Sequence record: OZ346158.1
Source of the DNA: a phage
DNA length: 64,000 nt
Reading direction: 5' to 3' (one strand)
The position numbers and the translations under genes are program-made. Below the pieces are notes generated by a model. It did not search any database. It worked only from the letters and a program-made list of their open reading frames with translations, and was not told the DNA's origin. Positions 4,488 through 55,484 of this stretch are shown one piece after another. The number at the start of each line of letters is the position of its first letter. The first letter of the stretch is position 1.

Positions 4488-6881
4488 ATGAGCATGTGGT
4501 CGTTCGACTTTGAGTCATCCGGTTTGCTGGAAGATCCAGATCTTTATTATCACTGCGGCCTGTTTAAAGAGCTGAATAAGAACCGTTTTATGCTGTTCCT
4601 TCCTCTAAATGACCGCACACACTACTCCGAAGAGGATATAGAGAAGGCTAAGAACTTTATTCTGGCAAAGAAAACTCTTCATAAAGATTTTGAAGTTCGC
4701 ATAGCAGATTTTTCGGAGTTGGAAGGTTGGCTTACAGGCAATTCCGACTGGTCACCAACAGCTTTGAACTGCCATAACTGCTACAGTTATGACTTTATGC
4801 TGATGGAAAGATTATCCGGTATTCATTTTGATATGTTCCGTGATCCTAAATGCATGGGGACTATCAACGACCACCAGGTTAACCTGTTTGATACGTTGGC
4901 TATGAGCCGAATCTTGTGGCCTGATCGCCCTTTACCAAAAGGTTGTCCGGACGCTGTATTCAACCCGGTTACTAAGAAAATGCAACCTGTTGGTCCTCAC
5001 GGCCTTATGGCATGGGGCTACGCCCTTGGTAACCAGAAAGTTCAAATTGATGACTGGCGCGATCTTCCGCTGTGGAAATATGTGGATCGTGTGTTCGAGG
5101 ACGTTATCATCCAGGAGTTGCTCTGGAAAGAGTTGGTAGCGGAATCAAAAGGTGTATTCTACGGCAAATCTGACATGCAGAACTTTATGTATGACCCTGC
5201 CAAAGAGAAGCCTAAAGGATTCAAGAAGATTACCTGGAAGAATGCATTACGCCGAGGCATGCTGCAGCATTTCCTGATGGAGCTGCAGGCTCGACAGGGT
5301 GTGTATTTCGACATAGATGGGGCTATTGCTTTACGTGACCGCTGCGATGCGTGGATGAAAGAGATCGCTGATCGTGTTGAACCACAACTTCCTTTAAAAG
5401 AGTTATCAATGTCTCAGCGGCCTAAGTTCCCTGAAAAGCCGTTTAACCAGGATGGGACAATCTCCAATAATGGTTGGAAATGGTTAAAAGATAAGCTTGG
5501 CTATCCTGTAGACATGAGCGCTTTAGAATTCAAAGCCCCGCCTAAGCGAGCATTTACCTCCACAGGAGATGTCAGCAAGATGGGGATAAAATGGTGCGAA
5601 GAGATGGGCTGCAAAGACCCCGACAAGATGGCTGATTTCTTGAGAGGTTATATTAAGGGCACCTCCACACCACAACCTTTACCTAAAGAGCTGATGGATC
5701 AGGCAATAAGTGATCTGCAGCAGAAGCGAATGCCTGACTGCAAGATACCTATGAAAATCAGCAATCAGGACGACATTAAGCGATACCTGATCAGTGCTGG
5801 TTGGCTTCCGACAATGTGGAGAACTAAGGATGTAACTAAGGACAGCAAGAAGAAAGCTCTACCTGATGCAGATGTTGATGCACGAGTATATGCATACATG
5901 GACGAGCTTTTAGAGTCAGAGTATTGTGACCTAATTATCAACTTCTGGAACAAAACTGATGCTAAGTTTCAGACAACAGTGCACAAGTTCCGAAGCTTTC
6001 CTAACTCCGAAAGGATTAAAAAGGAAGTGTTCGGGAAAATACGCAGAAAAGCCAGGGCACTTATTACTTCTCCGCAACTGAAAGATACGTTTGGACACCT
6101 ATGTCCGAATCTTGAAAAATTGAACGGAGAGATGGCTAAAGATATCGTCTTGTGGTTATCATTGCGAAACCGCAGATCGGTCCTTGATCCAATCAAGGAG
6201 GATAAGGTTGATACTGGTCTTCTTAATCACCCACGTTTGAAGATTGACCATAAGCTTCCTGCTAAAAGCTCTGGATTAACAAACACTTCCCGACAGAAAC
6301 ACAGTATTTGTGCAAACATGCCTAAACCATCTCCTAAAGTGGTTATGGGTAAAGAGATGCGTAGCTTGTGGGGTGTTCCTCCTGGATACTTTGAGATCGG
6401 TATTGACGGGTCCAACTTAGAGCAGCTTATCGGGGCTTGGGGTGCCTTTGAGTTCGACAACGGCTTGTACTATGATGTTGTAAGTAACGGGGACGCACAC
6501 CAAAACAATGCTGAGGCATATACAAAAGTAGCAGGCAGAGAGGTGTCTCGTAACGACGGTAAACCTATCACGTATGGGGTTATGTACGGGGCACAAAAAG
6601 ATAAAGTTGCAGATATGCTGGATATCTCCCCAGAGTTGGGGCAAAGGGTGATCGATGCACTTTGGGATGCCAACCCCGGTCTTAAGGGGCGCAAAGAGGA
6701 TCTGGAGAAATTCTGGGAAGCAACGGGTAAGAAGTTTATCTACTCTTTTGATGGTCATGCCATCTGGACCCGATCTAAACACTCTTTACTTAATGCATAC
6801 CAACAGAATGGTGGTGCATCGCTGTGTGACTTGGTTGGGATACTTATGCACCACCAAATGGTGAAGCGTGGGTGGTACGAT
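4488..6881 (+). CDS. DNA polymerase, family A (T7-like), exon 1 (ORF runs to in-frame stop at 6917 inside the intron)
   Basis: N-terminal 3'-5' exo motif FDFESSG; KPITYGVMYGAQ resembles motif B; tail GASLCDLVGILMHHQMVKRGW aligns with the segment just upstream of motif C in T7 gp5 as recalled. Confidence 0.85.
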
Positions 6882-7753
6882 GAAGGTGTTCGTCGTATTA
6901 TTTATTACCATAAATAACATTGTGGCTTCGTGCAGTGATGCACGTCGAAAACCTCTTTAATTGACGGGAAGGCTAAGTTGACTTTTACACCTAAACATGG
7001 TAAAAGCTCAATATGCTAATCCGCAGCGAAGACTAAAGGGGTGTAGTTAAAATGGCTAGATCAGTTGATTATCACGGATATACCGTGTTTGATGATGGAA
7101 CAATACCTTTATCGAAACGTGATCATACAACAATGTTCTGTTTTGATAATGGTCGAGGTTACCTTTGCGTAACCATGTTCATCGAGGGGAAGCAGTGCAC
7201 AAAAGGTGTCCACCACTTGGTTGCTGAATGCTTTGTATCAAACCCTGATCCTGAAAGGCTCACATGGGTGAACCATAAGGACGGAAACAAATACAACAAT
7301 GCATACTGGAACCTTGAATGGACCACCCCTGGTGGAAATATCAAACACGCTTATGATAATGACCTCAGAGTAAGGCCAGTCGGTGAGTATAATGCCAACG
7401 CTGTACTGACCGAGGATGAGGTAACGGAGATTTGCGAACTGTTACAAAGTGGTTTACGACAATGCGAGATTAGGGATCTTGGGTATCCTTATGAGACGGT
7501 CAGAGCCATAAAGCAAAGAAGACAGTGGAAACATATCTCTAAAAACTACACCTGGTAGTAACGTTCAGAGACTATCGAAAGCATAGCGCCAACATAAATT
7601 GGTGCGAAGAAGCGAGTAGAGTAGGCCAGCAAGTGCGGTCGAAATGGGAGGTGCCTTGGTAACAAGGTAGTGAGATAGTCCGATCCATACAGGAAACTGT
7701 ATGGCTGTGCACGTAATGGTGCGGGGTAGCTTAACGACCTACCTGAACTATTG
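6882..7753 (+). mobile_element. group I intron in DNA polymerase gene (boundaries proposed)
   Basis: Conserved core elements read directly: P-like AATTGACGGGAAGG (about 6958-6971), Q AATCCGCAGC (7018-7027), R GTTCAGAGACTA (7563-7574), S GAGATAGTCCGATCC (7672-7686), P9 hairpin with GAAA loop (7685-7704); in-frame stop just after the 5' junction; HNH ORF between Q and R. Confidence 0.8.
7052..7558 (+). CDS. HNH homing endonuclease (I-HmuI-like), intron-encoded
   Basis: VHHLVAECF...VNHKDGNKYNNAYWNLEW HNH motif; own RBS aaagggg; lies inside the polymerase intron. Confidence 0.85.
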   Translation: MARSVDYHGYTVFDDGTIPLSKRDHTTMFCFDNGRGYLCVTMFIEGKQCTKGVHHLVAECFVSNPDPERLTWVNHKDGNKYNNAYWNLEWTTPGGNIKHAYDNDLRVRPVGEYNANAVLTEDEVTEICELLQSGLRQCEIRDLGYPYETVRAIKQRRQWKHISKNYTW

Positions 7754-8107
7754 GATGAGTACCAACTTCAGGTCCCTGACACACCTAAGTATAAGACTGT
7801 GTACACCTTCGACACAATTGAAGAATTGGAAGCATTTAAGGCAGAGCAGGAGGCCAAACTTCATGTGTTCGACGGTCATAAGTACAAAAAGGCACGCAAG
7901 GATGAAAACGGAAACGAAGTGGTTGACAGAGACGGAAACACGGTGTACGATCCTATCCTGAACGATGACGGAAAGCTTGAACTTATCTGGAGCCCTGTGG
8001 GTGAAATGGTGGTGCATTGCTTCTGGCAAGCTTCTAAAATGATGGGCGTTCCATTCCAGATCACAGGTGAATACTTGTGCGGTCGTAACTGGGGTGATTG
8101 TCACTAA
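7754..8107 (+). CDS. DNA polymerase, family A, exon 2 (C-terminal part)
   Basis: Ends ...GRNWGDCH, the family-A C-terminal signature (T7 gp5 ends NWAICH as recalled); proposed junction gives ...KRGWYD|DEYQLQV resembling motif C WVHDEIQV. Confidence 0.7.
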   Translation, partial: DEYQLQVPDTPKYKTVYTFDTIEELEAFKAEQEAKLHVFDGHKYKKARKDENGNEVVDRDGNTVYDPILNDDGKLELIWSPVGEMVVHCFWQASKMMGVPFQITGEYLCGRNWGDCH

Positions 8108-39690: not shown

Positions 39691-40935
39691 TCAGCAACCA
39701 CAACTTCCGTAGTGCTTAACTCGCTCGATAACTTCCGCTTGCTTACCTTTATTGTAAGGACGGGAGTTAGGACTGGAAAGGTATCCAGACACACGTCGAA
39801 TTACACTGATCGTTCCCTCTTCATGGTTTCCACACTCTGGGCATACAAAGCCTTTAGCTGTTGCACTGAACTCACCAGAGAAACCACACTTGAGACATTT
39901 ATCCACAGGTTGGTTAATACCAAAATACATAATGTGTTTATACCCGAAGTCAACAAGAGCCTCTAAAGCATCCAGGTTGTTTTTCAGGTTAGGTGTTTCT
40001 ACGTATCCGATGTTGCCACCAGAGGAGATCATAGCAAAACCTTCCTCATACTCCCACTTATCAAAAGGAGAGCTATTTATCCATACTGGCTGATGGAAAC
40101 TGTTGGTGAGATATTCATGCTCGTGCTTCAACACTTCCGGATATTCACGATCCAGACAGGTTGCAGCTTTATAGCATAGACTCTCAGAAGGAGTGCCGTA
40201 CAAGCTAAATGCTAGTCTACTTTCCTTCTTGTATCGCTCACAAGCATCTCTCATGTGCTGAAGGATTCCAAGAGCTAAAGCCTTGTCACCCTCTCTGCCC
40301 AAAATCTGACAGGTTTCATACACACCGATATACCCAATACTGATGGAAGCGTACCCGTCATAGAAGAGTTTATCAATACTCTCTTCAGGATCCAGGCGAG
40401 CAAGAGCGCCTTCACACCACATGATGGGGTTCTGCCCTGCCTTTGTTCCTTTTAGACGATTAACCCTTACAAGGTGAGCCTCGTATGCAAGATCCAAGTA
40501 TTCGTCAAGAACTGCAAAGAAATCAACACCTTCCGTCTTGGCTTTTGCCGCAATCATTGGCAGGTTAAGGCTAACAACGCCTAAGTTAAATCTGCCAAGG
40601 TATTTCTCCTCGCCTGTTTCCAAGTCATTGTATTTGCTAAGAAAACTCCTGCAACCCATGCTAGTTACTTTGCCATCTGTCGAGCCTGTCACTTTTCTAT
40701 TTAGTGGTACAGATACGAAGTCAGGATAGATACGTTCTGCACAGCATTCCAGAGCTAATCGTTTCAAATCATAGTTAGGATCCCCAGGGTTCATGTTGAC
40801 ACCCTCTTCCAGGAAGAACAGCACTTTAGGGAACACAGGTGTGATACGTTCTTCACCAAGACCCATTTTGTGGACTTTCAGGTAGTTTTTGGTAATCATT
40901 CTACCAAAGACCGAGGTATCCAGTCCTAAACTCAA
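39691..40935 (-). CDS. nrdD: anaerobic ribonucleoside-triphosphate reductase, exon 2 (C-terminal part; 5' end approximate)
   Basis: FSLYGTPSES, C-terminal Cys cluster and glycyl-radical motif IRRVSGYL; frame continues from intron. Confidence 0.85.
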   Translation of the reverse strand: MSLGLDTSVFGRMITKNYLKVHKMGLGEERITPVFPKVLFFLEEGVNMNPGDPNYDLKRLALECCAERIYPDFVSVPLNRKVTGSTDGKVTSMGCRSFLSKYNDLETGEEKYLGRFNLGVVSLNLPMIAAKAKTEGVDFFAVLDEYLDLAYEAHLVRVNRLKGTKAGQNPIMWCEGALARLDPEESIDKLFYDGYASISIGYIGVYETCQILGREGDKALALGILQHMRDACERYKKESRLAFSLYGTPSESLCYKAATCLDREYPEVLKHEHEYLTNSFHQPVWINSSPFDKWEYEEGFAMISSGGNIGYVETPNLKNNLDALEALVDFGYKHIMYFGINQPVDKCLKCGFSGEFSATAKGFVCPECGNHEEGTISVIRRVSGYLSSPNSRPYNKGKQAEVIERVKHYGSCGC

Positions 40936-41747
40936 TGTGATGAATGGAGTCTGCTGTCTCCTCCCTGTGTTTCCACAGGGCCAGACTATCTCTTACTCTA
41001 CTTCAATAAGATAATAACCCTTTATTGTGAGATGCTTACCTTCGGCATTTCCTTCGATAGCCCTATGAACGTTACCTACGTTCAAATTTAAGGCTTTTGC
41101 ACAGGCATAGAGTGAAGGATATTCACCAACCAAGGTTTTACCTTTGTATGCCTGCACTTTCCTATAGCACTTACCTGGACAAAGTCCTGTTCGGAAAGCA
41201 TGTCTCTTATTATCTTCCGGCAAAACCCACTCTAGGTTAGACGGATGATCATTCAATGTATTGCCATCTTTATGATTCACTTCCCAGTTTTCAGGGTCTA
41301 CTGGGACATCTGGCAAACAATACAAGGCAACAACCCTTGAGGTTTGGATTCGAATCTTTTTGCCTTTGTGGTTGAAAGAGTACATATAACGGCGTTTAAC
41401 ATGCTTGTTACCTTTTCCATAACCTCCCCACAATATTGGGTGTAGCATTCCACGTTTTCCGTATACGTTTCCAACCTCATCAATCACATAGTTTGATTCT
41501 TCACCATTAAGAATGATCTTTTTCATAGAGCCTCTCCATTTCGAAGTTAGTATTTCAACTAACCCCTACACTACTTGGTTCAGAAATGTTTGTCAAGCAT
41601 CTCTGCCTTTCGTTAGTCGTTACAACCGTTCCAACTCCTGTAAGAACTAGTCACGGGATTGGCATAGCTTTCGCCTTAGCGTTCCCCGTTAGCCGGATTT
41701 ACCGACCCCTCTTATGAGGTTAGGAGAGTTTTACAACGGCCAGTTTG
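40936..41747 (-). mobile_element. group I intron in nrdD (boundaries approximate)
   Basis: On - strand: R-like GUAACGACUAAC (about 41610-41622), S-like GAGAUAGUCUGG (40981-40992), P9 hairpin CCCTGTG-GAAA-CACAGGG (40963-40980); HNH ORF embedded. Confidence 0.7.
40993..41526 (-). CDS. HNH homing endonuclease, intron-encoded
   Basis: SRVVALYCLP...VNHKDGNTLNDHPSNLEWV HNH motif; RBS ggagagg; between the two nrdD segments. Confidence 0.85.
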   Translation of the reverse strand: MKKIILNGEESNYVIDEVGNVYGKRGMLHPILWGGYGKGNKHVKRRYMYSFNHKGKKIRIQTSRVVALYCLPDVPVDPENWEVNHKDGNTLNDHPSNLEWVLPEDNKRHAFRTGLCPGKCYRKVQAYKGKTLVGEYPSLYACAKALNLNVGNVHRAIEGNAEGKHLTIKGYYLIEVE

Positions 41748-42611
41748 TTAACCGTTGACAGAAGTTAACGTATTGATTTGATAGAGCAAAGTCTGCATGC
41801 TGTCAAATACGTCTTTATCTGTCATTTGCATTGCAACAGTCTCAGCATCTGGCAACCAATGTTCCTGGCAAAATTTAAGGTTCTTCTCATAGGTCGCTTC
41901 AGCATACTGTGCCAGATAATGATCAATATGGCTCATAGTCTGACCACCATATTGAGCACTAGCTACCGCACTAGAGATTTGGCTAAGGATTGTTGTTGCA
42001 ACCCCTATTGACTTCGGCTTACTGACATGGGCGTTACCAATGTTGAATCCGTTTTCCAACATATCTGGATAATTTACCAAACAACAGTTTGTTAACGGAC
42101 TGATCAAGTAGTCAAGATCATGCACATGGATGAATCCTTTATTGTGCTCTTCGGAGACACGGTCTGGCAGGATCTGTGTTGATGCAAGGTGTTTGCTAAG
42201 AATACCTGCAAGCAGGTCGCGATGAGTGTGTACATGATTAGTAGGCTTATTTGCGTTTTCTTTTGTAAATTCATCACAAGTTCGATCCAAGAAGCCACTA
42301 ATATCTGCAAGCAGTTTTCCACCTGCCTCTCTGTTATTATCTCTTGTCTGTCTATACTGGATGTATTCTCTGGCTGCACATTTTAAACCCATATCCATAA
42401 GAGCATCTTCAACAAGGATATGGATATTTTTTACAGAGATCGTGCACTGGTCGGTTGGTAGATTGTTAGCAACAACTTCATTAACCGCGCAGGCGATCCG
42501 GTAAGCTTCTTCTTCAGTATGTCCAGACTCAAGTAAGGCGGACTCTGCCGCCTTGATCACCTTAATTCCGTTATAGAACTCTTCTCTACCGTCCCGTTTT
42601 ACAACTTTCAC
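41748..42611 (-). CDS. nrdD: anaerobic ribonucleoside-triphosphate reductase, exon 1 (N-terminal part incl. ATP-cone; 3' junction not pinpointed)
   Basis: ATP-cone start MKVVKRDGREEFYNGIKVIKA; ORF ends at a stop just inside the intron. Confidence 0.8.
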   Translation of the reverse strand: MKVVKRDGREEFYNGIKVIKAAESALLESGHTEEEAYRIACAVNEVVANNLPTDQCTISVKNIHILVEDALMDMGLKCAAREYIQYRQTRDNNREAGGKLLADISGFLDRTCDEFTKENANKPTNHVHTHRDLLAGILSKHLASTQILPDRVSEEHNKGFIHVHDLDYLISPLTNCCLVNYPDMLENGFNIGNAHVSKPKSIGVATTILSQISSAVASAQYGGQTMSHIDHYLAQYAEATYEKNLKFCQEHWLPDAETVAMQMTDKDVFDSMQTLLYQINTLTSVNG

Positions 42612-49734: not shown

Positions 49735-50193
49735 TTAGAAGTTTGTTTTTACACGTCCCTTCTCATCAACCTCGTTGTTAGCTAAAAGCGTTACAAAGTC
49801 TGTGAAACGAACATGAAGAACCCTTTTCTTATCAAGGTATCCTAAAGCCACCCCTGAGAAATTTAGCATCAAAGGGGCTAAAGAAGCTCTGGCACTGAAA
49901 TGCTGTTGTTCTACCCTTCCAACACCCTTAGTGTAGGATGGGTTAAGATTGTAAGTTCTGAATCCCAGTTTTGTTGGAGCTTTAGAATTAAAAACGACTT
50001 TATAGCGTTTCTTACTCAACTTATGCTCCAGGATAAGCATTCCCTTATCACCTTTGATAAGTTGAAAATCTGTAAAGTGCTCTTTTAAGACGAAAGGTAG
50101 TGCCAGTCCCATCGCCTGTCCTCTTTGTACCGCTGTCTCACCAAAAGCTTTTGCATCAGTAAGTTCTTTGGTCAAGTCTATGCTTTTGATCAT
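49735..50193 (-). CDS. hypothetical protein
   Basis: 152-aa ORF. Confidence 0.5.
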   Translation of the reverse strand: MIKSIDLTKELTDAKAFGETAVQRGQAMGLALPFVLKEHFTDFQLIKGDKGMLILEHKLSKKRYKVVFNSKAPTKLGFRTYNLNPSYTKGVGRVEQQHFSARASLAPLMLNFSGVALGYLDKKRVLHVRFTDFVTLLANNEVDEKGRVKTNF

Positions 50194-51004
50194 ACCTGGT
50201 CTCCAAAATGTATTGTAGTTCTTTCTTACCTATACTCTTCATTCCAGCAGTCTTACCTGCTTCTTCTTGAAAAGAAGAATAGCATTCAGCAAACACTCTG
50301 TCAACACCGTTAACTAAAGATTTTATGAAATATGTTGATTCTTCAGATTTTGGGTCATCATCCCCCAATACTTTTCCAGCATTATACCCAACACGTCTTA
50401 CACAGAAGTCGTAGTCATCTGGTGTGCTAAAAGAAAATAACTTATTCTCTCCAATCTCTACAGGATCCCTATTGCACGCCTTTTTCTCCCAAATTTGGAA
50501 AACACATGGCACGTCATAAGGTTTGCCATTAAGTAAAAACGAATTCTTAGGGCACCTTTCGCTGTAGACAAGGTGCATCGACATGTCCAGTTTGTTTGCA
50601 AAAAATATTTTTTCAAATGTCCGTGGCAAGATGAAGGCTATAGCCCCTCCAAGCTCTAGCAATGATGCACAATGGTTAAAGAATTTGCAAGCTAAGGATG
50701 AATTCTTGCCAAATGGTGGGTTACCTATGAAGACATCTGCCTTGGGATGCACCTCCAAGAAGTTTGCCTGAATGCACGGTGTTGGTCCTTCAAATTCAGG
50801 ATCTGGTACTAAATCGTACGACAGTATCTCTGAAAATAGTTTTGAAAAAGAACCCCTTCCAGCAGAAGGCTCAACGTATGCACAATTCCCATACTTATCT
50901 TTTACTTTACCAACAAGATATTCTGCATACTCAGGGTTTGTGTAGTATTTGTCGTTGGACTCTTTCTTGCTCAAAGTGCCTCCAAAAGGAAAAGGGAGGC
51001 GCAA
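50156..51004 (-). CDS. DNA N6-adenine methyltransferase
   Basis: YVEPSAGRGSF (motif I) and FIGNPPFG (motif IV NPPF). Confidence 0.7.
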   Translation of the reverse strand: MRLPFPFGGTLSKKESNDKYYTNPEYAEYLVGKVKDKYGNCAYVEPSAGRGSFSKLFSEILSYDLVPDPEFEGPTPCIQANFLEVHPKADVFIGNPPFGKNSSLACKFFNHCASLLELGGAIAFILPRTFEKIFFANKLDMSMHLVYSERCPKNSFLLNGKPYDVPCVFQIWEKKACNRDPVEIGENKLFSFSTPDDYDFCVRRVGYNAGKVLGDDDPKSEESTYFIKSLVNGVDRVFAECYSSFQEEAGKTAGMKSIGKKELQYILETRYDQKHRLDQRTY

Positions 51005-51019
51005 GCCTCCCTATAATTG

Positions 51020-52003
51020 TTAGATTATCTGAATCAGGGTATTTTTCATTTCTTCTCTGGTGCGGATGTTGTTACGGTCACGAACAACAGATCCACAACC
51101 TTCGCAGCGGTATGTTTTAAATGCACTCAGTTGAGTATACGCCAAAGCTTCTTCCTCGTGAAGGTGTTCTCCACCACAGCGTGGGCAACGAACTTTTGGC
51201 TCCTCATCCTGGTAGTACAATGACATGTTGGGGTGCTGCTTAGCAAACGGGCGAGCCAGCAAATACAGGCCTTCCAGAGATAGGATATCGCCAACATTGT
51301 ACTCCCGCATCTGTTTAAACGCCTCAAGATCACCGTGAACACACTTGATCCACATTTCAAATGTGTGGTCAATCAGTTTCTGTCGGGCAAGTTGGAAGTA
51401 TTTGCATGCATACTCCAAAGTGTTTGCATTCAAACGGAATGCCTTCTTGATCATTTTAAGGGTGTCAACCTCTTTGTAGGGGCTTGTTGGAGGCAATCCG
51501 TGAAATGCAAATCGTTGGTTGGCCCACCCACAGTCAAAACCTGAATTGTGGGCTACTGCGACATCACATTTATCCAGATAATACCACAAATCCTGAATCA
51601 ATTCGAGATCATTGTGAATATCCTCATCCCACATTTTGTAATCAGGAAGAGCGCAGTCAACCACACTAGGACTGTCTAACCACTTACCTGCGAAAGTTAG
51701 CATGTAGGGCATAATTTCAATACCGCAGGTTTGAATGTTGGTCTTATAGTGCCCAAAGAACCAGCCGTTTGTTGGAGATGTCTCTGTATCATACACCCAA
51801 ACTTTAGCACCTTTGTGCTCTTCAAGGAAGCGCTCCGTTGCTTCTCCTACAATCTCTGACATATTCTCTTGTGCACGTTTAAGCTGTAGTCGGATCCAGC
51901 TCTCACGTGACTCACGGCCTAAAAATTCACGAGCAATTTGTCTATTAGTGTATCCCTGTTGCTTTAGTGTTAAAATTTGCTCAAGAGTTAACTTTGTCAT
52001 CAT
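51020..52003 (-). CDS. DnaQ-like 3'-5' exonuclease with N-terminal HTH and C-terminal zinc ribbon
   Basis: VYDTET (Exo I), AHNSGFD (Exo II), DEDD-type; N-terminal LTLKQQGYTNRQIAREF HTH-like; C-terminal CPRCG...CEGCG. Confidence 0.6.
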   Translation of the reverse strand: MMTKLTLEQILTLKQQGYTNRQIAREFLGRESRESWIRLQLKRAQENMSEIVGEATERFLEEHKGAKVWVYDTETSPTNGWFFGHYKTNIQTCGIEIMPYMLTFAGKWLDSPSVVDCALPDYKMWDEDIHNDLELIQDLWYYLDKCDVAVAHNSGFDCGWANQRFAFHGLPPTSPYKEVDTLKMIKKAFRLNANTLEYACKYFQLARQKLIDHTFEMWIKCVHGDLEAFKQMREYNVGDILSLEGLYLLARPFAKQHPNMSLYYQDEEPKVRCPRCGGEHLHEEEALAYTQLSAFKTYRCEGCGSVVRDRNNIRTREEMKNTLIQII

Positions 52004-52015
52004 CGTTAAGATTCC

Positions 52016-52237
52016 TTAGTAAAACTGAAGAATGTCTTTTAAAGCGAAGTCACGATATTCGCCCTTGTCTACATCGAAGGCACGCATCAACCACTGCTCT
52101 TCTTTATGATACTCTGTAGAGCCAAACCATAAATTAGGCTCAGTAACGCAGCGATCTGCAACAACACCTTTCCAGTTACGGTATTTCATCCTGATCAGAA
52201 CTGAATCGCAAGGATTGAATACCTTTTTCATCCCCAT
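52016..52237 (-). CDS. hypothetical protein
   Basis: 73-aa ORF. Confidence 0.45.
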   Translation of the reverse strand: MGMKKVFNPCDSVLIRMKYRNWKGVVADRCVTEPNLWFGSTEYHKEEQWLMRAFDVDKGEYRDFALKDILQFY

Positions 52238-52781
52238 AGAAATCTCTCTCCTCAGTTTTCTTTATAAACTCCTGCATGTAGAACTCAATAGCCTCATGCT
52301 TGGTGCACTCCGGATTAATGACAAGATTGAGATCTGATTCTGCTCGTGCAATGATCGTAGCTTTAGAGCATCTCCTCAAGAACTTTGTCATATCATCTCT
52401 GTAGTTTTTGTGGAGCGGGAAGTCGCTGTAGTCTTTCTCCAAATAGTCAGCCATCCGGCGCAACGCCTCTGATAAACTGCAATCTGTATACTCGTTACAG
52501 TATTTCATCCAGTATTTAAGCACATACCCCTCAAAGGTATTAGTGCATTGGGACAAAACACCCCTGCAACGACCAGTCAGATGGTCATGATCCAAACAAG
52601 GCTTACGAAGTGGCTCGCACAAGATAGGATCAAGACCATCCTGCTCCTCTGACAATTCTTTTCGAAAGTTGGCTATGTCCTTAGAATCTTTTAACCACCC
52701 GTTATGAACGGGGGCTTTGACAGCTTTCTTTCTTATTTTACGCTTTGCGATAATCCCTCCAGATGCGCCCTGCCTATCCAA
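52176..52781 (-). CDS. endonuclease VII-like junction-resolving nuclease
   Basis: CLDHDHLTGRCRGVLSQCTN matches the Endo VII zinc-binding/catalytic signature (DHDH-x-TG-x-x-RG); start uncertain. Confidence 0.6.
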   Translation of the reverse strand: MDRQGASGGIIAKRKIRKKAVKAPVHNGWLKDSKDIANFRKELSEEQDGLDPILCEPLRKPCLDHDHLTGRCRGVLSQCTNTFEGYVLKYWMKYCNEYTDCSLSEALRRMADYLEKDYSDFPLHKNYRDDMTKFLRRCSKATIIARAESDLNLVINPECTKHEAIEFYMQEFIKKTEERDFYGDEKGIQSLRFSSDQDEIP

Positions 52782-53362
52782 TAAGCATCTGCGAGATCGG
52801 CCTTACCTTGTACCAAATTGATCCCATCTAGGAACCCAGGTTCAGATACTTCGCAGGCCTTAACCATCAACTTTTTATCCATCGTAACAGGTTTCTTCAC
52901 AGTATGCTCTTTACCTGTCTTTTTGTCAAGCTTTTTCTTCTCCTCGAAAGCAAGTTCCTCAGGAAGATGACCACGAGCAAACTTTTTGGCAGTTGTTGGT
53001 GTCACTGTGTGGACCTTAAACAGGCCGTCATTTTCACAATCAGCTAAGGCATCCCAAAGCATAACTTCAAGACCGTAAAACAACCCAGCCAGTTCACGTG
53101 TGGCATCCCCGCGTGATCCAAAGGAAAGCCCTTCCATAACTACAGTGTCAACGCCGTGCGTGTGGATATAATATCTGACCTGTTTGCAGATCCAGTCAAT
53201 ACGCTCAGCAGCTGTTGCAAAAGAAACCGTCCCTGGTTTCTTCTCTTTTGCAGATGAGCTTTGAGTTCGTAACACAACCTTATGAACAGGCTTTCCATCG
53301 TCCCATACAACGCAAGCTGTGTGTGTCAACGACTGGTCTATGGATAATAGACGCTCTCTCAT
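52733..53362 (-). CDS. RuvC-like Holliday junction resolvase
   Basis: LSIDQSLTHTACVV (RuvC motif I-like), ...ADLADAYWIGRAHL C-terminal catalytic Asp region. Confidence 0.55.
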   Translation of the reverse strand: MRERLLSIDQSLTHTACVVWDDGKPVHKVVLRTQSSSAKEKKPGTVSFATAAERIDWICKQVRYYIHTHGVDTVVMEGLSFGSRGDATRELAGLFYGLEVMLWDALADCENDGLFKVHTVTPTTAKKFARGHLPEELAFEEKKKLDKKTGKEHTVKKPVTMDKKLMVKACEVSEPGFLDGINLVQGKADLADAYWIGRAHLEGLSQSVK

Positions 53363-53694
53363 GCTTCCTCATCCTCCTCTCCTTCATCAGGAGCATAAGC
53401 CTTATCTTTGAACAATACGAGAGAGCAAAGCTTAACATCTGTTTCCACACTGGTGAACATGCATAACCGCTCGCCCTCAATCAGCTCACAATCCTCTTTT
53501 AAAACAGCAGACCATACACGGTCATCTGCGTAATCATCCGTGTACAGGATGTATGAAATGGTGTCATCTTCATACAACCGCCACATACCTGTGGCAACAA
53601 CGAATGTATTTTTTGTTTTAAGTGTCCCTGTTGTGTGATCATCCTCAAAAACAGCTTCCATAATTGCGTTATCTACAGAATTTTTAGTCATCAA
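53359..53694 (-). CDS. hypothetical acidic protein
   Basis: 111-aa ORF with acidic C-terminus. Confidence 0.5.
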   Translation of the reverse strand: MMTKNSVDNAIMEAVFEDDHTTGTLKTKNTFVVATGMWRLYEDDTISYILYTDDYADDRVWSAVLKEDCELIEGERLCMFTSVETDVKLCSLVLFKDKAYAPDEGEEDEEA

Positions 53695-54830
53695 ATTGCT
53701 CCAACATTTCTAAGAACGTTAACAAGTTTTGTTTGATCATTGAATGTTCGCTTCATATACAAACAGTCAAAAATTATACTCATCCATTGACCTACAGAGA
53801 TTCTACGATCAATACCATTGAAGTCAGTATACTTAACAACACCTTTCGGGAACCACTTCTTGTACTGATCAATAATAGCCACCCACATCTCCTTTGGAGT
53901 GCTGCACTGAGACAGTAGGTAGAATGCTGAGGCATCTCCGAACTTACCCTTACCGATAAGTCCTTGATACGGCTTGATGTTGTCAGCAGAGTCACCACAC
54001 AGCATTTGGTATCCGAAGAACAGCATTCCGTAACCACCAACCTCTCCATTAGGCTTCATGAAGATGTTCCCCATACCGTTATCGATCAGCATAGGGGTTT
54101 CCCTTACAAAATCTCCCTTATCGTTTCGCATGGGATCGAACACAAGCCCCGGTAGTGTTCTTTGGTCCTTATCAATAGAGATAATAAACTTGTTGAACTT
54201 ACCTGTTTTTTGGTAGTGGTTCCAACCTTCAAATTGCTGGATAGCTAACCAGTCATCAGCCTCGATACCGTTGATCACTTGAGCATTATACTGCTTTTGG
54301 AGATACTGTCTTGCATCTCCAAGCAGCAGTGGTCGAAGAGTATTGTTACGGTTGGCTTTGTATCTTTCCGGCATTGGAAGATCTAGTCTGAAGTTACCTG
54401 TGCCTCCCAACACCCCGACACATCGCTCTTCCGGAATACCAAGATAGTTAAGAACTGCATTTGCCTTACATTTTATTGTGTGCAAGCAGTTCTCTACAGG
54501 GTCAGGTGTTTGGATATCCAAGACATCAAAATCTTCACGTGTCCACGGAATAAACTCCTTACCAGACTTTTTACATGCGGCTTCACGGTTGGTATTCTCA
54601 GCTTTTAGCCAACCACCAACGGTGTTCTTCTGCCGCCCCCAGAACTCTGTTCGTGTTTTAAACATCTTCTTACGTCCGGAGGCTTTGTGTGTTACCTCAA
54701 TTGTCCTTTTTTCACAACTTGCTGCAGCTTGATATGCAACCTGATCGAAGTCATAATAAACTATAGCGTCAGGTTCAAGAAGATCAGCCAGACAATCTAT
54801 GGACTCAATAAGTGGATATTCTCTACTCAA
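53691..54830 (-). CDS. 5'-3' exonuclease / flap endonuclease (FEN family)
   Basis: GIEADDWLAI (G-x-EADD) and LCGDSADNIKPYQG (GD-x-SDNIPG-like) FEN motifs. Confidence 0.7.
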   Translation of the reverse strand: MSREYPLIESIDCLADLLEPDAIVYYDFDQVAYQAAASCEKRTIEVTHKASGRKKMFKTRTEFWGRQKNTVGGWLKAENTNREAACKKSGKEFIPWTREDFDVLDIQTPDPVENCLHTIKCKANAVLNYLGIPEERCVGVLGGTGNFRLDLPMPERYKANRNNTLRPLLLGDARQYLQKQYNAQVINGIEADDWLAIQQFEGWNHYQKTGKFNKFIISIDKDQRTLPGLVFDPMRNDKGDFVRETPMLIDNGMGNIFMKPNGEVGGYGMLFFGYQMLCGDSADNIKPYQGLIGKGKFGDASAFYLLSQCSTPKEMWVAIIDQYKKWFPKGVVKYTDFNGIDRRISVGQWMSIIFDCLYMKRTFNDQTKLVNVLRNVGAI

Positions 54831-55131: not shown

Positions 55132-55190
55132 ACCTAGTTCTCCTAGTTTATAGATATCTGACCGATAATATCAGATTAATAACACTTTTG

Positions 55191-55484
55191 TCAAGACTTT
55201 TTAGTCTTTCTTGGAGAGCTTTTTGTTGATCTTTTCCTTTTGTGGTAGATTCCAAGTGCAGCGTTTTCTTGGGCGCACGTTTTAACAGTTCTCAGACAAG
55301 AACTTTCAGCTTTAGGCAGGTTTAACTCCCACCAACCAAGCCAGTAAAGTTCTGATTCAGACAACTGCTCAGATTCAGCCTTCCGATACAAGGATTGCAT
55401 ACCTCTGATGATGTCGTCCAGAGGTGTATCGAATACAAAAGCTGTCTTATCAAATTTCTCTTTTAAAGGTTTCTTAGCCATCAA
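55191..55484 (-). CDS. hypothetical protein
   Basis: 97-aa ORF with basic C-terminus. Confidence 0.5.
   Translation of the reverse strand: MMAKKPLKEKFDKTAFVFDTPLDDIIRGMQSLYRKAESEQLSESELYWLGWWELNLPKAESSCLRTVKTCAQENAALGIYHKRKRSTKSSPRKTKKS

Follow-up and report, generated by a model that had tools for sequence, protein, structure and literature searches.

Free DEDD exonucleases that act on 3' ends outside the replisome are familiar from Escherichia coli, in the form of ExoI and ExoX, and from phage T4, in the form of DexA. All three are of the DEDDh type, and we know of none among them that has a layout with a helix-turn-helix (HTH) and a zinc ribbon. Other DEDD domains belong to polymerases: in the family B enzymes (Pyrobaculum, Pyrococcus, KOD, Pol epsilon, E. 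coli Pol II) the exonuclease domain is covalently part of the polymerase, and in E. coli DnaQ, the epsilon subunit, it is followed by a C-terminal tail that binds the alpha subunit. A further group comprises the YprB-like proteins (PF13482, RNase_H_2) and those of PF10108 (DNA_pol_B_exo2), the latter predicted to be 3'-5' exonucleases akin to the exonuclease domain of PolB. Here we compare with these systems the product of a gene at 51020..52003, on the minus strand of 64,000 nt of phage record OZ346158.1 (the window; positions are counted on the whole of it). The gene encodes a protein of 327 residues with an N-terminal HTH, a DEDDy 3'-5' exonuclease core and a C-terminal zinc ribbon, an arrangement that, as judged from profile matches and motif counts, is the norm in phrog_403, a very large and already catalogued phage family. 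The protein is predicted to be an active stand-alone two-metal-ion 3'-5' DNA exonuclease.

The open reading frame (ORF) is complete and fills 51020..52003 exactly, beginning with an ATG. A ribosome-binding site read from the sequence, AAGGAA (52012..52017, minus strand), lies 8 nt 5' of the ATG and overlaps the stop codon of a small ORF upstream. The DNA at 50000..54000 has 100% identity to Escherichia phage slur16 (Vequintavirus, rV5-like) and 99-100% identity to many other rV5-like phages; the exonuclease region is present at an identity of at least 90% in all 121 DNA-similar phage records, and the gene itself is 100% identical to that of slur16 gp181 (YP_009177540). Its annotations vary: it is a "DNA polymerase exonuclease subunit" in the RefSeq entry for slur16 gp181, a "DnaQ-like 3'-5' exonuclease" in the BASEL phage WalterGehring, and the "DNA polymerase III, epsilon subunit" or a "hypothetical protein" in other records. 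The phrog_403 profile matches with an E value of 1.4e-110 (370 bits), residues 2-326 falling on profile positions 2-320 of 321. Because the match runs from end to end, the three-part layout belongs to the existing family profile, and the window protein is a member of phrog_403 with no structural difference from it. The gene is real and already catalogued, and the match is far beyond chance.

The exonuclease core spans residues 67-255 (51239..51805, minus strand). Iterated homologue searches returned 442 relatives, and the family alignment holds 63 sequences, throughout which D72 and E74 (ExoI), D157 (ExoII), and Y235 and D239 (ExoIII) are invariant; N153 (ExoII) is kept in at least 90% of them. 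The ExoI residues lie in VYDTET (residues 70-75) and the ExoII residues in AHNSGFD (residues 151-157), while ExoIII reads Y235-N-V-G-D239, a Y-x3-D pattern. The invariance of these residues places the motifs in catalytic register and in the DEDDy type. In an AlphaFold2 (AF2) model built from the 63-sequence alignment (mean predicted local distance difference test, pLDDT, of 82), residues 68-253 form an alpha/beta core with a pLDDT of about 90, which can be superimposed on known DEDD exonucleases. The nearest structures are proofreading domains of DNA polymerases, T7 gp5 and ExoI, and the closest folds among them are the family B polymerase exonuclease domains, at 13-17% identity. Unlike those domains, the phage exonuclease is free-standing and has putative DNA-binding modules of its own.

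The best Pfam match of the protein itself is PF00929 (RNase_T), at 21.8 bits and so below the cut-off of 24. It gave no match to PF13482 or PF10108 at E <= 10; among the 63 aligned relatives, 57 match PF13482 and 53 match PF10108 (E <= 0.01), and PF13482 is precomputed in databases for most relatives. By these family matches, the core is closest to the PolB-exonuclease-like or YprB group of the RNase H-like superfamily, with which it shares both the fold and the DEDDy motif. The accessory domains differ, however: bacterial YprB carries others, as indicated by its JGI name ("with RNaseH-like and TPR domain"), and not an HTH and a zinc ribbon. A PADLOC model for a CRISPR-associated DEDDh protein also matched the exonuclease (E 3.7e-6 over about 80 residues), which we read as generic similarity within the DEDD superfamily.

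A preliminary description of the locus had named the protein a DnaQ-type DEDD exonuclease. The DEDD core is borne out by the invariant motifs, but the DnaQ type is not, the protein being DEDDy and not DEDDh. ExoIII of E. coli DnaQ has the pattern H-x4-D, as against Y-x3-D in the phage protein. The scores against the DnaQ equivalog models of NCBIfam are 26.8 bits against a cut-off of 196 (NF004316), 23.0 against 222.7 (TIGR01406) and 16.1 against 71.5 (TIGR00573). Two domains of the phage protein, the HTH and the zinc ribbon, are additional to what DnaQ has, and the ribbon stands where epsilon has its alpha-binding tail. Because of the ExoIII pattern, the scores far under the cut-offs and the ribbon in place of the tail, the exonuclease is, by sequence criteria, not DnaQ.

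The N-terminal HTH is formed by three helices within residues 5-47 or so (51863..51991, minus strand), which AF2 places at residues 7-15, 20-27 and 31-47 with pLDDT values of 78-90. A helical linker (residues 48-66; 51806..51862, minus strand) joins it to the core; the model has a helix at residues 49-62, of which residues 49-57 have a pLDDT below 50. The string that had first suggested an HTH, LTLKQQGYTNRQIAREF, lies at residues 11-27, and the pattern IAREFLGRESRESWIRLQLKR resembles the HTH_38 consensus. Alone, the protein gave sub-threshold Pfam matches to HTH_38 (E 0.034) and HTH_7 (E 0.093), and a weak one to DUF7626. When 32 family N-termini were combined in a profile, the only clear match in the PDB was the PAI HTH of the Sleeping Beauty transposase (E 0.003), which agrees with the helices of the model in upholding an HTH here. 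Domain searches and structure prediction together thus give both the HTH and the exonuclease motifs in register, and every string quoted in the preliminary description (the two exonuclease strings, LTLKQQGYTNRQIAREF, CPRCG and CEGCG) is present in the ORF.

The N-terminal module is exchanged between relatives. A Pfam scan of the N-terminal extensions of 107 relatives (E <= 0.01) gave, among other families, HTH_23 in 22, HTH_38 in 16, HTH_SB, Sigma70_r4_2 and HTH_28 in 9 each, GerE in 8, HTH_7 in 6 and NUMOD1 in 3; four of the 107 hold an IS1-like CxxC...CxxC zinc ribbon in place of the HTH. NUMOD1 is a DNA-binding module of homing endonucleases. The position is thus filled by transposase- or resolvase-type HTHs, NUMOD1, an IS1-like ribbon or nothing at all, while the core and the C-terminal ribbon are constant. 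Across the 32 aligned N-termini only two columns are invariant, and a profile of the marine-type N-terminus recognised no more than 3 of 150 relatives, because the N-terminal modules are too diverse. Since relatives swap the module among transposase-type HTHs, NUMOD1 and IS1-like ribbons, the idea that the HTH serves as a recognition module for nucleic acid is plausible. No result obtained here shows sequence-specific targeting or points to RNA.

The C-terminal zinc ribbon covers residues 268-312 (51068..51202, minus strand). Its two CxxC knuckles, C273-P-R-C276 and C300-E-G-C303, lie within CPRCG (residues 273-277) and CEGCG (residues 300-304), 23 residues apart, around three beta-strands (residues 281-289, 294-300 and 306-308; pLDDT 62-79), and are followed by a terminal helix in the AF2 model (residues 316-326; 51023..51058, minus strand). 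About ten zinc-ribbon families of Pfam match it below threshold (E 0.002-0.005), as do ribbon models of NCBIfam. At least two CxxC motifs follow the core in 133 of the 150 best relatives, so that the ribbon first read from the window sequence holds for the family at large. In a large marine clade the length and strands of the ribbon are kept and Ser replaces the second Cys of each knuckle (CPVSGS...CEDSKH). The ribbon of this clade is apparently degenerate and possibly metal-free, and because of these substitutions some members of the family probably do not bind zinc.

The family is very large. When 1.84 billion cluster representatives were scanned by HMMER without filters, 3,459 relatives were found with E <= 0.001; of these, 2,466 have E <= 1e-10 and 441 have E <= 1e-30. 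By tblastn, 1,528 phage records contain the protein, and the hosts of these phages include Mycobacterium, Escherichia, Pseudomonas, Vibrio, Xanthomonas, Klebsiella and Acinetobacter. Layouts were counted in the 150 best representatives. The ExoI motif could be placed in 130 of them; an N-terminal extension of 40-110 residues is present in 106 of these 130, and 18 lack the N-terminal module wholly. The combination of domains had been taken to be unusual. It is instead the norm of phrog_403, and the gene was already in GenBank and RefSeq. Examples of the family are slur16 gp181, WalterGehring bas51_0201, Q0E5Y0 of Pseudomonas phage LKA1, which is the best match among predicted viral structures (TM score 0.69), and gp37 of mycobacteriophage Girr. 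Literature searches found no biochemical study of a phrog_403-type exonuclease. The one experimental result found for the family concerns the Girr protein, a cluster F1 homologue, whose overexpression in M. smegmatis is moderately toxic (PMC11075535), as would fit a nuclease that is active in cells.

The gene stands last in a row of minus-strand genes, after, in order, a small ORF, a 5'-3' exonuclease, a 111-residue ORF, a RuvC-like resolvase, endonuclease VII and a 73-residue ORF. The 5'-3' exonuclease is of the flap type (53691..54830; phrog_107, E 5.4e-71) and is called "putative 5'-exonuclease", "exonuclease" or "RNaseH" in related records. The RuvC-like Holliday-junction resolvase lies at 52733..53362 (phrog_159, E 2e-40) and endonuclease VII at 52176..52781 (PF02945, E 1.5e-7; also phrog_423 and phrog_29095); the 73-residue ORF (52016..52237; phrog_3715) is apparently co-transcribed with the exonuclease gene, by prediction. 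Downstream of the exonuclease gene are those for an adenine methyltransferase, thymidylate synthase and ribonucleotide reductases. Between the exonuclease and methyltransferase genes, a terminator scan found a hairpin resembling an intrinsic terminator (50993..51012, minus strand), which starts 7 nt past the exonuclease stop codon and has an 8-bp stem with 6 G-C pairs followed by TTTCCTTTT. The 46 nt at 50980..51025, which form a larger structure that includes the hairpin, fold with -18.7 kcal/mol (z -4.1), a stability that no shuffle out of 200 equalled. The hairpin is likely to mark the 3' end of the transcription unit of the nuclease genes. A candidate for the start of the same unit is a sigma-70-like promoter at 55165..55194 (minus strand), found by a consensus scan, with TTGACA, an 18-nt spacer, TG and TATTAT (11 of 12 matches).

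The association with nuclease genes recurs in unrelated phage lineages. In phiKMV-like podoviruses, a 5'-exonuclease gene and an endonuclease VII gene are followed by a phrog_403-type gene, and a phi92-like phage has a 5'-exonuclease gene that directly overlaps the start of its phrog_403-type gene. Three further cases are Acinetobacter Saclayvirus, ICP1 and Vibrio phage eugene, where the phrog_403-type gene has a 5'-exonuclease gene on one side and, on the other, genes for thymidylate synthase, ribonucleotide reductase or MazG. Other relatives have other surroundings. In a T4-like Aeromonas phage the gene is just downstream of rIIB, in an accessory region; in cluster F mycobacteriophages, which are counted as polymerase-less, it is between the lysis cassette and the integrase; and in an Arthrobacter phage it follows the holin gene. 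Marine siphovirus contigs (37-39 kb) with a relative of the exonuclease encode ERF or Rad52-like annealing proteins together with NinG, and the genes called in the 12-17 kb around the exonuclease gene include no polymerase.

The recurrence of this gene context, with 5'-exonuclease, endonuclease VII and nucleotide-synthesis genes, suggests a role in trimming 3' ends, which we favour and hold with evenly balanced confidence. The flap-type 5'-3' exonuclease, the RuvC-like resolvase and endonuclease VII would probably be made together with the DEDDy exonuclease, which would trim the 3' ends that these structure-specific nucleases leave. Its catalytic core would strip nucleotides off free 3' ends, and the transposase-type HTH and the zinc ribbon would act as DNA anchors, accessory modules for binding nucleic acid or a partner that keep the enzyme on DNA. 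The trimming may occur during the processing of branched replication and recombination intermediates, in the breakdown of host DNA, or in both; in the second case the nucleotides released would feed the pathways of the neighbouring thymidylate-synthase and ribonucleotide-reductase genes. The resemblance of such a role in DNA turnover and recombination to that of ExoI, ExoX and DexA is suggested by gene context only. The analysis shows the fold, the catalytic residues, the arrangement of domains, the size of the family and the gene neighbourhoods, and from these the DNA substrate, the part played by HTH and ribbon, the co-transcription and the physiological role are inferred.

Several points weigh against this proposal. 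The nuclease operon is predicted from consensus scans only, and promoter-like sites are not enriched over shuffled sequence (17 found against 12.6 expected); the nuclease synteny is absent from the T4-like phage and the actinophages, and partly from ICP1; and zinc binding would not be universal, two of the four ribbon cysteines being Ser in marine relatives. The remaining points concern the phage polymerase and the possibility that the exonuclease is a proofreader in trans, docked on that polymerase or, where a phage has none, on the replicase of the host. We regard this as unlikely, although several points are in its favour: the protein is homologous to Pol III epsilon and to the proofreading domains of polymerases, RefSeq and PHROGs label it "DNA polymerase exonuclease subunit", and for jumbo phages it has been proposed that polymerases lacking an exonuclease are partnered by stand-alone ones (PMC7824862). 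The window encodes a T7 gp5-like DNA polymerase, PolA (4488..6917, plus strand; match to T7 gp5 with E 1e-14). The protein begins with MSMWSFDFES, in which FDFES aligns with D5 and E7 of T7, and an ExoII-like motif, HNCYSYD, follows, both in weak but colinear alignments with T7. Because the two motifs are colinear with those of T7 gp5, PolA appears to carry its own proofreading domain. The canonical ExoIII tyrosine, however, is not evident in PolA, nor is it obvious in a phiKMV-like PolA, of which an unfiltered hmmsearch aligned only the ExoII motif. Motifs and weak T7 alignments being the support for an exonuclease domain in PolA, the polymerase may need proofreading from outside. A profile comparison of the exonuclease family with the PolA N-terminus gave no signal (hhalign probability 0.2), a phmmer search of the PDB with that N-terminus gave no match, whereas full-length PolA did match T7 gp5, and a homologue search with the N-terminus returned two proteins only. 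Against a proofreader in trans stand also the distance of about 44 kb between the polymerase and exonuclease genes, which are in different transcription units, the DnaQ equivalog score of 26.8 bits against the cut-off of 196, and the zinc ribbon in place of an epsilon-like C-terminal tail. The family is, moreover, found in phages without a polymerase and in the T4-like phage, whose family B polymerase proofreads itself, as is established for T4 gp43. In Bacillus subtilis, deletion of yprB, the namesake of PF13482, was tested for a trans proofreader and gave no mutator phenotype (PMC5627055). Because exonuclease motifs are retained in PolA and polymerase-less phages have relatives too, the exonuclease most probably does not serve the phage DNA polymerase as a subunit. 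For phrog_403 as a whole, the label "DNA polymerase exonuclease subunit" or "DnaQ-like" is probably wrong, because the family is DEDDy, fails the DnaQ models and is present in phages that have no polymerase or one that proofreads itself.

Three other explanations were considered. The HTH might recognise one specific DNA sequence (at an origin, for instance, or at a packaging site or host locus) and position the exonuclease there. The exchange of the N-terminal module for other sequence-reading modules of the sort found in homing endonucleases and transposases (HTH_23, HTH_38, HTH_SB, NUMOD1 and IS1-like ribbons) is in keeping with this, and so are its two invariant columns, since poor conservation is expected if specificities differ. 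An exonuclease, however, requires an end and not a site, 18 of the 130 relatives do without the module, and no target repeat turned up near the gene, although no search was aimed at one. Single three-helix HTHs of this kind bind few base pairs and are often general DNA anchors. A site-directed nuclease is quite improbable in our estimate. Its extension to the whole family, in which phrog_403 would consist of "addressed" exonucleases brought by swappable N-terminal modules to particular DNA sites or structures, is a comparably long shot. If it were true, such enzymes might start the destruction of the host chromosome, process the ends of the phage genome or disarm DNA-based host defence; to our knowledge, such a logic of targeting has until now been described for homing endonucleases and transposases but not for exonucleases. 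A function in conflict, in anti-defence or exclusion, with the enzyme destroying host-defence nucleic acid (retron or guide DNA, a linear signalling oligonucleotide) or the DNA of a competitor phage, has a slighter chance still. It draws on the temperate actinophages, where the gene lies between lysis cassette and integrase, away from replication genes, on the toxicity of overexpression, and on the distant CRISPR-associated DEDDh match of PADLOC (E 3.7e-6), but that match is generic DEDD homology over about 80 residues. In rV5-like phages, moreover, the gene is a stable core gene (121 of 121 DNA-similar records at an identity of at least 90%), surrounded by genes of DNA metabolism and not in a variable accessory island, and no experimental link to defence is known. 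We consider it very improbable that the enzyme acts on RNA, as an exonuclease resembling RNase D or RNase T by which RNA of the host or the phage would be trimmed or degraded. The best Pfam match is named for RNase_T, but PF00929 includes DNA exonucleases too, the top structural neighbours are all proofreading domains of DNA polymerases, and the neighbouring genes all act on DNA.

Some marine relatives have surroundings of their own. In two marine siphovirus contigs (L011, 7108..10082, and L009, 6123..14842), the exonuclease gene is near genes for NinG and DUF3310. In one marine lineage it is two genes upstream of the portal gene, with no recognisable large terminase called between them. Because of this place before the portal gene in one marine contig, and of weak matches to GpA_ATPase and Terminase_5, a relation to terminases was considered; it was dropped, the matches being confined to the zinc ribbon or the HTH and the fold being that of a DEDD enzyme and not of a terminase nuclease.

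Two genes elsewhere in the window appear to be interrupted. The polymerase gene ends right after "...RRIIYYH", within polymerase motif C, and the frame resumes with "DEYQLQV..." in an ORF at 7751..8107 (the whole region being 4488..8107, plus strand). The full Rfam model for group I introns, RF00028, matches at 6902..7703 with 38.9 bits (E 3.4e-8), which is below the gathering score of 50, and an ORF for an HNH/AP2-type homing endonuclease (7052..7558) lies inside the match; the PolA gene appears to be interrupted by an intron. The gene for NrdD, the anaerobic ribonucleotide reductase, is split in two, with an HNH endonuclease gene between the parts (39691..42611, minus strand; L002, 1691..4398), and is annotated as a two-piece join in the BASEL record. 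This looks like another insertion of an intron or homing endonuclease in a gene of nucleotide metabolism. A separate observation concerns the public records: twenty GenBank entries named "Campylobacter phage", with C. jejuni stated as host, match the exonuclease region of the rV5-like phages of E. coli. Among them, MG065654, MG065666, MG065672 and MG065676 (C15, A12a, A116 and A141) have about 98.8-99% identity to that region, which suggests that these are mislabelled or contaminating phages.

The gene at 51020..52003 is thus a correctly read and ordinary phage gene and not a new type of nuclease. It belongs to a family found in more than 1,500 sequenced phages, among them the therapy-relevant rV5-like, phiKMV-like and ICP1 phages. 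Its conserved pairing with a 5' exonuclease and endonuclease VII leads to a simple, testable hypothesis, in which the family would serve the processing of phage DNA ends or the recycling of host DNA.

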